From Candidatus Giovannonibacteria bacterium (GTDB lineage Bacteria; Patescibacteriota; Minisyncoccia; UBA11713; 2-01-FULL-45-33): 64,000 bases of DNA. Positions within the stretch are counted from its first letter, which is position 1. Each line of letters begins with the position of its first letter. Below the pieces are notes generated by a model. That model had not been told where the DNA came from and ran no database searches. It was given only the letters and a program-made list of their open reading frames with translations. Made by a program: the position numbers and the translations under genes. This document shows, piece by piece, positions 39,684-42,628 of this stretch. Where the stretch lies: NCBI GenBank assembly GCA_016432405.1, contig CP066687.1, forward strand, positions 586,629-650,628. Direction: 5' to 3'.

Positions 39684-42628
39684 ATCACAAAATTTATAAG
39701 CCGTTTTGGGACAAAAATAATTTTACTCGGCTTCTTATCGCCCAAAATAAATTTAACTTTTGCGCGAGATAAAGACAAGCGCTCTGCCTCGGCTTCCGTG
39801 ATATTCACAGGCGCATCAAACTTGTCGCGTACCTTGCCGTTGATTTGGACGATCAGTTGGAAAGTGTTTTCTTGAATTAATTTCGCGTCATATTTTGGCC
39901 ATTCTTCAAGATGAATAGATTTTTTATTGCCGAGCTTTGACCAAATTTCTTCAGTAAGATGCGGAGCGAAAGGAGCGAGAAGTTTGAGAAAATAATAAAA
40001 TTCATTTTCAAAAACATCTCCTGTATGCTCATAACTCTCAAGCTCATACGACAAAACCATTAAATGAGAAATTGCCGTATTAAAATGGAATCCATCTATA
40101 TCCTCGCTTACCTTTTTTATGGCCTTATGAATGCTTCGTTGTATTGATTTAGTAGTTTGTTCATGATCGAATGGAAGATGTTCTTTAAGCATTTCTTCTC
40201 GGCTTTTGAATTTCTTTTTACTTATCTTATCGGCTAAGGAAAGAACTTTATTATCCAAAAATCTTTTAATTCCTAGAATCCCTTGCGGATTCCAAGGATA
40301 CGAGCCGGCTTCGTTATACGGGCCGATAAACGCCAAATACATCCGTACCGTGTCCGCGCCAAATTTGGCGACATATTCGTCCGGGTCAACCACGTTGCCT
40401 TTTGATTTGGACATTTTCTGTCCGTCCGGCCCTAAAATAATCCCGCGGTTTCTTCTTTCTTTGTACGGCTCATCCCCAAGCTCTTTGGGGATTAGCCCTA
40501 AATCGTACATCGCCTTATAAAAAAATCTGGAATACAAAAGATGCATAGTCGTATGCTCCGCGCCTCCGGAATATAAATCCACCGGCATCCAGTCTGCTGC
40601 CCTGAGCTTATCGAAGGGCTTCCTGCTGTTGTTTGGATCCGTATATCTCAAAAAATACCATGATGAATCAACAAAAGTATCCAGCGTATCGGTTTCGCGC
40701 TCGGCCTCGCCACCGCATTTCGGGCATTTCATTCTTAACCATTTTTCGGCTTTAGCTAAAGGAGATTTTCCTTCTCCGGTCGGCAGATAATCTTTGATTT
40801 CCGGCAATAAAACCGGCAAGTCCTTTTCCGGCGCGGCAACCGCGCCGCATTTTTCGCAATGAATTATCGGGATCGGCACTCCCCAATAACGCTGGCGCGA
40901 CACAACCCAATCCCGAAGTTTGTATTGCGTTTTGATTTGTCCACCAACAAACTTTGTAATTTCCAATTTTGCTTCTTCAGAATCTAGATTAGAAAATTTA
41001 CCAGAATCAATTAATTTTCCTCCGCCCAGCCAGATATAACTATCGCTTTTTAATCTCTCCCAAAACATTTCTGAATATCGAGAATCGCCAGCAACAGAAC
41101 CTTTTTTCAGAAACGGCAACACATCTTTTTCATTGACCCACAAGATATCATGCTTCTTGTATTCTTCATCTGACACAACTCCTTGCGTGCCGTCAATAAG
41201 CTCCAAATACATACCATATCCAAAAACATGCTGGTTTAAGTGCTTATGTGGAGCGTAAAAATCAGAAATATTTGGCCCACCAAGATATTTTACAAAACGA
41301 ACTTTTGTATATCCAGTTTCTTCTTTTATTTCCCGAATCATCGCATTTACATAATCTTCATTGGGTTCAACACCCCCAGTAATGAATCCGGTCCAACCAT
41401 TTTTCCAATCAAGCATCAAATATTTATTTTCAGACCAGTGCTTAACAATTCCAACCCCAATAATTCTATTTTTAGTTTCAACTTCAGATCGCGGTTTGCT
41501 ATTTTTAGTTGTGTCCAGAAAATATGGGGCGATAACATATTTCACCGGGATTTTAAACTTATTGGCAAACTCAAAATCGCGCTGGTCGTGCGCGGGGACG
41601 GCCATAATCGCGCCGGTTCCGTAACCCATAAGCACATAATCTGCGATCCAAATGGGAATTTCTTCTTGGTTTACGGGGTTAATTGCTTTGACACCCTTTA
41701 ATTCAACTCCCGTCTTTTCTTTTTCTTCTTTTTGCCTTTGCAGCTGTGTCTTTTGCTTGGCTTTCTTAATATACATTTGGACTTCGTCCCAATTTTCAAT
41801 TTTCAATTTCAAATTTTCAATTAAGGAATGTTCCGGCGCCAATACCATATAAGTCGCCCCGAAAAGCGTATCGGGACGAGTGGTAAAAACTTTAATTGAA
41901 AATTGAGAATTAGAAATTGAAAATTTTATCTCTGTGCCCTCCGACTTTCCTATCCAATTTTTTTGGGCTTCTTTGATTTCTTCTTTCCAGTTTAATTTTT
42001 CAAGACCAGCCAAAAGTTTTTCGGCGTAATCGGTAATTTTAAGCATCCATTGCTTCATATTTTTTTGCACAACCTCCGAGCCGCACCTTTCGCACTTTCC
42101 GCCAACTACCTGCTCGTTTGCGAGCACGGTTTTATCTTTTGGGCACCAGTTTACCGGCGTCTCCGCCTGGTACGCCAGCCCTTTTTCAAAAAGTTTTAAA
42201 AAAATCCACTGGGTCCATTTGTAATATTCAGGGTCGGAAGTAATAACTTCGCGGGCCCAATCAAAAGACGCGCCCATGGACTTAATTTGCTTCCGCATAT
42301 AATCAATATTTTCATAAGTCCATTTTTTGGGGTTAATTTTCCGCTGGATGGCGGCGTTTTCCGCCGGAAGACCGAAGGCGTCAAAACCGATCGGGAATAA
42401 AACATTTTTCCCCTCCATCCTTTTTTTCCGCGCGAAAATATCCGGCACGGAAAAAGCGTACCAATGGCCGGTATGGAGATTCCCCGAAGGATATGGAAAC
42501 TCTACTAAAGCATAAAAATTATCAGCTCCGTTTTTTTTGTCGGGCGTTTTATAAATCCCCGATTTTTCCCACTCCTTTTGCCATTTCTTCTCTATTTTTT
42601 TATGGTCATAGGAAGCCATATTGGCCAT
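39680..42628 (-). CDS. leuS: leucyl-tRNA synthetase (with inserted Nudix domain)
   Basis: HIGH-type motif NLHTGH, editing-domain markers [12 protein letters not shown] and [13 protein letters not shown], KMSKS; Nudix box [23 protein letters not shown] inserted. Confidence 0.9.
   Translation of the reverse strand: [982 protein letters not shown]

Follow-up and report, generated by a model that had tools for sequence, protein, structure and literature searches.

Bacterial aminoacyl-tRNA synthetases are usually seen as architecturally stable, and extra enzyme domains in them are deemed a eukaryotic speciality. Here, we analysed a leucyl-tRNA synthetase (LeuRS) encoded in a 64,000-nucleotide stretch of the Candidatus Giovannonibacteria bacterium contig CP066687.1 (assembly GCA_016432405.1, positions 586,629 to 650,628). 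This whole stretch is referred to as the window, and nucleotide positions are those of the window unless a locus is named. As judged by profile matching and alignment, the CP1 editing domain of this enzyme carries a Nudix domain inserted in-frame. As a kind, synthetases with a fused or inserted enzyme domain are already known. The nearest precedents are class Ia synthetases with extra domains (the family 'isoleucine--tRNA ligase, N-acetyltransferase domain-containing', NF040702, and CP1), which share with the window LeuRS an in-frame globular enzyme domain. In the window LeuRS, in contrast, the domain is nested within a domain that was already inserted. Synthetases of the window type differ further in their Nudix cargo, in their use of CP1 and neighbouring loops, in a copy number of one to three, in swapping between lineages and in the presence of alternative cargos. 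NF040702 was compared by family name and gave only a weak match, of the IleRS type, on the window LeuRS.

A Nudix domain is also covalently joined to an enzyme handling adenylylated intermediates in the NadM-Nudix proteins (NMN adenylyltransferase/ADP-ribose pyrophosphatase). There, the fusion is end to end and has a same-pathway metabolic rationale, whereas in LeuRS the Nudix domain is inserted internally, and its host is an enzyme of translation; the NadM-Nudix models (PRK05379) match few of the inserted units, hereafter termed cassettes, and only weakly. The closest solved relative of the cassette subfamily is a 'MutT/nudix family protein' of Enterococcus faecalis (PDB entry 2AZW; UniProt Q836H1), which differs in being a free-standing 148-residue Firmicute protein of weak sequence similarity (19 bits, single sequence). 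A review of the Nudix clan (PMC5389931) gives the function of this protein as undetermined, and hence it supplies no substrate information. A further set comprises Nudix enzymes acting on polyphosphates or RNA 5' ends, namely the diadenosine hexaphosphate (Ap6A) hydrolase Ndx1 (1VC8), Rv2985, DDP1/DIPP1, Escherichia coli RppH, YtkD (4JZU) and the diadenosine tetraphosphate (Ap4A) hydrolases. None of these is inserted in another enzyme, the family scores of the cassette lie far under the respective cutoffs, and its margin for this class over other Nudix classes is small. Full-text literature searches turned up no paper that describes a Nudix domain within LeuRS or another aminoacyl-tRNA synthetase, and tRNA and synthetases are not mentioned in the Nudix-clan review (PMC5389931). 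The carrier proteins have been public for years under generic names with PF00293 precomputed, and it appears to be the interpretation, not the sequence, that is unreported. The reading that we favour, with slightly better than even confidence from sequence comparison and structural models, is that the cassette is an active, exchangeable nucleotide-pyrophosphatase module, which would make this a bifunctional LeuRS with an autonomous second activity in nucleotide sanitation or salvage.

The initial annotation, made from the letters of the window alone, had proposed a Nudix domain with a perfect Nudix box inserted in-frame in LeuRS, and both parts of this proposal were borne out. The leuS gene (39680..42628, minus strand, stop codon included, from the list of open reading frames; all features of leuS given below are on the same strand) encodes 982 residues and scores 997.6 bits against TIGR00396 (leuS_bact) in an NCBIfam profile search, for which the cutoff is 548.4. 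The Pfam family NUDIX (PF00293) matches residues 391–505 (41114..41458) with 45.6 bits in the whole protein. A HMMER comparison of the earlier segment alone with PF00293, which had been put forward as a check, gave 48.3 bits (E = 1.3e-12; gathering cutoff 21.1). The Nudix box occupies residues 418–440 (41309..41377), includes the metal-binding, catalytic residues R432, E433, E436 and E437, and is an exact match to the pattern GX5EX7REUXEEXGU; it is the sole match to this pattern over all six frames of the window, and the finding goes well beyond what chance would give.

Column conservation was calculated over 263 copies of the cassette. Within the box, G418 is conserved in 98%, E424 in 83%, R432 in 85%, E433 in 99%, E436 in 98%, E437 in 100% and G439 in 97%. 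Further conserved columns, specific to the subfamily, lie beyond the box (41138..41467, together with an X-loop pair): R388 (93%), K462 (93%), N465 (95%), E489 (89%) and W497 (96%), and a basic residue, R, is found at position 466 in 72%. The X-loop pair is the aromatic F457–Y458, 17–18 residues past the box, with F in 69% and Y in 52%. Roles of residues outside the box were taken from analogy with other Nudix enzymes, by which E489 is a likely additional metal ligand. The near-invariance of the catalytic glutamates (98–100%) argues for a catalytically active pyrophosphohydrolase, with a substrate that is not readable from the residues. Non-enzymatic Nudix domains do exist (PMC5389931), and the cassette could in principle be a non-catalytic module, i.e. 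a ligand sensor, a structural brace or an NrtR-like surface for binding RNA or protein. Some second copies at other sites of LeuRS, e.g. in P0001, have a degenerate box (E7 → Q, R15 → A) and would suit such a role. Given the conservation of E433, E436 and E437 and the intact box of the window copy, a non-catalytic module is very unlikely.

A model of the domain was generated from an alignment of 37 cassettes, with a predicted local distance difference test (pLDDT) score of 95.0 and a predicted template-modelling (pTM) score of 0.88. It has the canonical Nudix order of strands and helices (α/β/α-sandwich) followed by one extra C-terminal helix, and Foldseek agrees with this assignment. The second tier of fold neighbours is enriched in enzymes acting on diadenosine polyphosphates (ApnA), polyphosphates and RNA 5' ends (Ap6A/ApnA hydrolases, DIPP and RppH). 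Matches to PDB sequences are weak and mostly limited to the box, at no more than 33 bits with a profile and 22 bits with a single sequence. Every curated Nudix family of NCBIfam scores far under its cutoff against the cassettes. On sequence grounds, the cassettes belong to a so far uncharacterised Nudix subfamily; among the recovered proteins, LeuRS of Paceibacterota/Parcubacteria are almost its only carriers.

These neighbours bear on two other readings of the activity. In the first, the Nudix domain would be an RNA-end enzyme acting on tRNA(Leu) or another LeuRS-bound RNA, e.g. by taking off a nucleotide cap or a 5'-triphosphate, as RppH and NudC do. RppH-type NCBIfam models match most cassettes (37/37 and 36/37; best E = 3.5e-11), YtkD/BsRppH is the top NCBIfam match of the window copy while lying far under its cutoff, the top phmmer match in the PDB is Bacillus subtilis RppH (4JZU), and decapping Nudix enzymes (AvrM14, oomycete effectors and Dcp2) are among the structural and sequence neighbours. 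The cassette also sits on a domain that handles the acceptor end of tRNA. Against this, the RppH/YtkD models (PRK00714 and TIGR02705) reach at best 21–23 bits where their cutoffs are 116–154, and these matches of about 22 bits fall largely within the Nudix box. Cleavage by RNase P, moreover, leaves mature tRNA with a 5' monophosphate. We consider an RNA-end enzyme unlikely.

In the second, the Nudix domain would be coupled to the synthetase and would destroy in cis Ap4A, diadenosine triphosphate (Ap3A) or another adenylate-derived side product of LeuRS, controlling the level of alarmones or side products; this reading, which goes back to the initial annotation, is the main rival of the one we favour, and we hold it as a tentative minority view. 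The flavour of the second-tier structural neighbours, ApnA hydrolases and RppH, is consistent with it, as are the near-exclusive occurrence of the subfamily in LeuRS and its presence at several independent sites. The conserved basic residues R388, K462 and, in 72% of copies, the arginine at position 466 would suit a polyphosphate chain. ApnA hydrolases are marked by a conserved tyrosine in the X-loop, which follows the Nudix box (Dunn et al. motif; PMC5389931); F457–Y458 lies where they carry it but matches it only loosely, the register against known ApnA hydrolases being one of sequence position. On the other side, no curated ApnA or RppH model comes near its cutoff. LeuRS is among the weaker producers of Ap4A.

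The boundaries of the cassette were determined from the gap in the alignment with Thermus thermophilus LeuRS (1H3N), from break-points in sequence identity and from the translation, and enclose residues 367–536 (41021..41530). In the alignment, residues 5–366 of the window protein correspond to residues 2–362 of the T. thermophilus enzyme and residues 537–733 to residues 381–579. A total of 170 residues therefore stand in place of an 18-residue loop; the equivalent loop has about 20 residues in the close relative P0164, in keeping with the earlier statement that the linker of ordinary LeuRS is short. With the secondary structure of the full-length model taken into account, the cassette consists of an N-terminal linker (367–384), the Nudix fold (385–512), the extra C-terminal helix (517–528) and a C-terminal linker (529–536). 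The range given in the initial annotation (41045–41476, residues 385–528) thus lies inside the insert and falls short of its full extent. Its placement of the insert after the end of CP1 had to be corrected. The match to the editing domain (PF13603) is broken off at position 146 of 185 in the window LeuRS and runs unbroken over the junction in relatives without a cassette (P0167: positions 22–183 of 185), which by these profile positions puts the Nudix domain within CP1, itself a Rossmann-fold insertion, and not after it. The 'IDSGKF' segment belongs to the C-terminal part of CP1. The GC content of the insert is 0.36–0.39 and other parts of leuS are just as low, so there is no clear signal of foreign DNA.

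The host enzyme is predicted from its motifs, profile score and structural model to be a complete, editing-competent LeuRS of the bacterial type. Its sequence is identical to the public entry P0151, 'leucine--tRNA ligase [Candidatus Giovannonibacteria bacterium]', encoded on a 651,549-bp contig; the NCBI gene model begins at the second Met and has 979 residues. Pfam detects the class I catalytic domain, the editing domain PF13603 (215.9 bits) and the anticodon-binding domain. The synthetic site has the HIGH signature in the form HTGH (residues 52–55; 42464..42475) and the KMSKS signature (residues 738–742; 40403..40417), both located in the translation; H52, G54, H55, K738, M739, S740 and K741 are invariant across 60 aligned LeuRS. 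The N-terminal part of CP1 (residues 223–366; 41531..41962), which matches positions 1–146 of the 185 in PF13603, includes the T-rich motif TTRPDT (residues 249–254; 41867–41884) and the editing motif AHDQRD (residues 346–351; 41576–41593), and T249, T250, R251, T254, H347, D348, R350 and D351 are likewise invariant in the 60 sequences. The C-terminal part of CP1 resumes past the cassette (residues 537–573; 40910..41020), aligns to T. thermophilus LeuRS from residue 381 and ends in KLRD. The full-length AlphaFold (AF2) model has a pLDDT of 90.3 and a pTM of 0.81, with 94–97 for the pLDDT of the Nudix region, and its body superimposes on the T. thermophilus and E. coli LeuRS structures with Foldseek template-modelling scores of 0.82–0.86 (normalized by target length).

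The leucine-specific domain, which is present in the E. coli and T. thermophilus enzymes yet is not universal, is absent from the window LeuRS, which does not disqualify it as a LeuRS of the bacterial type. Residues 733–738 (40415–40432) span residues 579–637 of T. thermophilus LeuRS, i.e. about 57 residues are missing. This absence would favour the idea that a non-catalytic cassette replaces the domain. The segment at its position, termed S4, is however 8–9 residues long in every related locus that reaches there, with or without Nudix; compensation for the missing domain by the cassette was rejected because relatives without a cassette, close ones included, lack that domain equally.

The distribution of the cassette was examined at two levels. 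In a survey of LeuRS loci with one genome per species, 349 related loci were found, essentially all in metagenome-assembled genomes of Parcubacteria/Paceibacterota, and 80 of these were retrieved; about 64 of the 80 hold an insert of about 153–177 residues at the same loop. A survey of related genomes had also been suggested in the initial annotation; overall, the insertion recurs in hundreds of related LeuRS. An exhaustive HMMER search with the insert alone against 1.84 billion cluster representatives gave 313 at E ≤ 1e-3; a word-indexed homologue search with the insert alone gave no match, which reflects its limited sensitivity. The best 150 of the 313 representatives comprise 102 recognisable LeuRS, about 32 short free-standing proteins or fragments and 16 others, among which are small proteins with a reduced CP1-like domain bearing the Nudix domain at the same loop. 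Four insertion sites for the Nudix cassette were distinguished: S0, immediately ahead of the CP1 hinge; S1, within the first hairpin of CP1; S2, the site used in the window; and S3, after the RQRYWG motif. Among 280 LeuRS-like proteins, 235 have one copy, 13 have two and two have three, and the copies are distributed as about 247 at S2, 11 at S0, nine at S1 and three at S3. Second copies at S0 or S1 (P0001 copy 2, P0002 copy 2 and the S1 insert of L059) often have a partly degenerate box, in which E7 is replaced by Q and R15 by A while the three catalytic glutamates are kept. These may represent a distinct subtype or a weakened copy.

To follow the history of the cassette, identity to the window protein was measured separately for the part of LeuRS before the cassette (N-core), the cassette and the part after it (C-core). 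Cassette identity and N-core identity are inversely correlated (r = −0.41, n = 100). Relatives with an N-core identity of 77–87% have no Nudix domain or, for the most part, one that is only 31–37% identical, and about half of the relatives at or above 77% lack any Nudix domain (P0157, P0161, P0163, P0164, P0165, P0167–P0171, P0176 and P0242). Of these, P0164 has the normal short loop. In another close relative, P0158, the site is occupied by a Nudix-box domain of a different kind (24.7 bits). Conversely, LeuRS with N-cores only 52–61% and C-cores only 44–48% identical bear cassettes that are 66–74% identical (P0198, P0172, P0177, P0240, P0187, P0204, P0186 and P0267). In a sliding-window comparison, identity breaks sharply near residues 365–367 and 533–540 of the window protein. 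For all pairs among 57 cassette-bearing LeuRS, backbone and cassette identity are nearly decoupled (Mantel r = 0.157); the cassette cluster of the window is also that of the most distant backbone clades, and its own clade mostly has another cluster. From this decoupling and the sharp break-points, replacement or transfer of cassettes between LeuRS genes is the simplest reading of the sequences, probably by recombination through the conserved flanks. No free-standing Nudix copy was found beside leuS in the cassette-less loci, where it was looked for. The cassette is dispensable between close relatives and has a history unlike that of the backbone. Both the absence of the domain from about half of the closest relatives and the exchange of cassettes between backbones speak against an obligatory coupling of the Nudix domain to LeuRS chemistry.

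A larger deletion was also observed. Residues 363–553 of the window protein are missing from P0157, P0161, P0163, P0170, P0171 and two loci (L054:~2843-2865 and L055:~6043-6065), which removes the C-terminal CP1 hairpin (LPITDRPLVDKNEVIKKVGG) as well. The carriers are the closest backbones, with 87–88% N-core identity, and the deletion may have been left behind by a cassette that was lost imprecisely.

Nudix is not the only cargo in the loops of these synthetases, and other small hydrolase modules alternate with it or occur beside it. α/β-Serine hydrolases and other α/β-hydrolases (PF06821 and PF12697) were detected with Pfam at S1 in P0159, L075 and L078 and at S3 in L060 and L067. Ham1/ITPase (PF01725) is present at S1 in P0167, P0171 and L066, and a complete copy (186.8 bits) occupies a further site, S5, in the C-terminal helical region (L027:~5400-6200). 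ASCH (PF04266) is found at S1 in P0170, and an ASCH-like motif with no Pfam match at S3 in L072, P0003 and P0020. In L056, S1 contains an in-frame DUF559 Vsr-like endonuclease (PF04480, 118.7 bits). The two classical families of 'house-cleaning' nucleoside triphosphate (NTP) pyrophosphatases (Galperin and colleagues) are Nudix and ITPase. For a coupled hydrolase these findings are unfavourable, as nothing obvious connects ITPase, ASCH, α/β-hydrolase or endonuclease with Ap4A.

Relatives outside LeuRS were inspected in the same way. Stand-alone proteins of 273–388 residues combine a reduced CP1 (mini-CP1) with the Nudix domain (P0024, P0068, P0086, P0104 and P0150); in these, TTRPDT has degenerated to ERPEL and AHDxRD to AHNQED. 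That both parts are held together there is in favour of a coupled hydrolase. The P0104 gene (mini-CP1 and Nudix; L081:3063-3884, L082:2468-3289 and L083:2567-3388) is part of a conserved cluster of CYTH, P0104, nucleoside 2-deoxyribosyltransferase-like, CYTH and cytidylate/thymidylate-kinase-like genes. The free-standing Nudix protein P0118 is encoded near a gene for uracil-DNA glycosylase (UDG) and another Nudix gene. Free-standing homologues in such nucleotide-metabolism neighbourhoods weigh against obligatory coupling. In P0081 (368 residues; eight contigs, the longest of 69,986 bp), a free-standing Nudix domain of the same subfamily is followed by a C-terminal α/β-hydrolase-like region; this fusion, together with the co-occurrence of Nudix and α/β-hydrolase in many LeuRS, hints at a functional link between the two. 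In P0027, P0077 and P0083 (232–251 residues), an N-terminal domain of about 100 residues precedes the same Nudix domain. Its identity as a class II anticodon-binding domain was not confirmed (HGTP_anticodon on P0027, 18.9 bits; cutoff 21), a point against an RNA-end enzyme, and a profile search of PDB sequences with the P0027-type N-terminal domain gave nothing significant.

The patchy distribution and the exchange of cassettes would also be expected of a neutral or selfish insertion, such as an intein-like parasite without function for the cell, and the endonuclease in L056 recalls mobile DNA. At E ≤ 0.1, however, Pfam detects only NUDIX in the insert, with no intein, Hint splicing or homing-endonuclease domain, and an intein or homing element was rejected for this reason. 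The INPHARED phage collection gave no match to the cassette, and IMG/VR gave only distant generic Nudix domains, 26–32% identical over longer stretches; with no copies in either collection, a phage or viral vector is without support. The deep conservation of the Nudix catalytic residues is not expected of a functionless passenger. An assembly or annotation artefact, such as a chimeric contig, was rejected on the recurrence of the insertion in hundreds of assemblies: well over 200 LeuRS genes, assembled independently in many studies, share the architecture, and the reading frame is uninterrupted. Whether as parasite or as artefact, an insertion without function is extremely unlikely.

The preferred reading, an active and exchangeable pyrophosphatase module, draws these observations together. 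Fold and catalytic motif are both complete, and strong purifying selection acts on them. The domain, which probably folds separately in a surface loop of CP1, would catalyse the Mg2+-dependent cleavage of a diphosphate bond in a nucleoside-polyphosphate substrate; candidates are dinucleoside polyphosphates, NTPs that are non-canonical or in surplus, and related compounds. Its activity would be autonomous and would serve nucleotide sanitation or salvage without being an obligatory step of leucylation or editing, and the module would be carried by a protein that is essential and constitutively expressed, in a genome whose coding and regulatory capacity is minimal. A theme of nucleotide housekeeping is seen in the Ham1/ITPase, ASCH and α/β-hydrolase domains of the loops and in the neighbourhoods of P0104 and P0118. 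Several points weigh against this reading. LeuRS makes up 102 of the 150 best family members and no other recognisable synthetase or housekeeping protein is among them, which simple hitch-hiking leaves unexplained. The mini-CP1 and Nudix proteins hint that CP1 and the Nudix domain may form a functional unit, and a substrate linked to translation would suit the second-tier neighbours of the model (ApnA, polyphosphate and RNA-5'-end enzymes) as well. Part of the decoupling could stem from cassette subtypes evolving at different rates and not from transfer, and cassette-containing queries were used in sampling, by which carriers are over-represented.

A possible, though doubtful, extension is that the LeuRS of Paceibacteria serves as a 'cassette platform' with at least five permissive loops (S0, S1, S2, S3 and S5), in which small modules (several Nudix subtypes, Ham1/ITPase, ASCH, α/β-serine hydrolase and the DUF559 endonuclease) are duplicated within the gene and exchanged laterally between LeuRS genes via conserved flanks, and the Nudix domain, more than a passenger, cooperates with CP1 on a nucleotide-linked product made by the synthetase or on an RNA end. 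Such cooperation is suggested because conserved stand-alone mini-CP1 and Nudix proteins occur.

Other features of the window were recorded. On the minus strand, the gene order over 38451–45009 is metG (43408–45009), a tatD-like hydrolase gene (42641–43411), leuS (39680–42628) and glyA (38451–39683), with overlaps of 4 nucleotides at both the metG/tatD and the leuS/glyA junctions. The tight packing and these overlaps suggest that metG, tatD, leuS and glyA are co-transcribed and translationally coupled. A tRNA-Ile gene with the anticodon TAT (UAU) is located at 24339–24412 (minus strand); UAU tRNA-Ile is uncommon in bacteria, in which AUA is usually decoded by a lysidine-modified CAU tRNA. A tmRNA gene (Rfam RF00023, 105 bits) is located at 60252–60581 (plus strand), and its predicted tag peptide, ANLFNKVVNALRPMQLATSYA, has the terminus SYA in place of the common LAA type.

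To a specialist, the most surprising part is the multi-site, multi-copy pattern of exchangeable cassettes. An essential synthetase of an ultra-small candidate phyla radiation (CPR) genome holds a second, apparently active enzyme within its proofreading domain. If this is true, it would define a new class of bifunctional LeuRS and open a so far uncharacterised Nudix subfamily, the orphan structure 2AZW included, to experiment. It would also chart permissive positions for insertion in LeuRS and CP1 that nature has already validated, which would be useful for protein engineering. Were the Nudix domain coupled to LeuRS chemistry (e.g. through Ap4A or RNA ends), it would tie aminoacylation directly and physically to nucleotide signalling. 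More broadly, the arrangement would show reduced genomes packaging accessory enzymes into essential genes.

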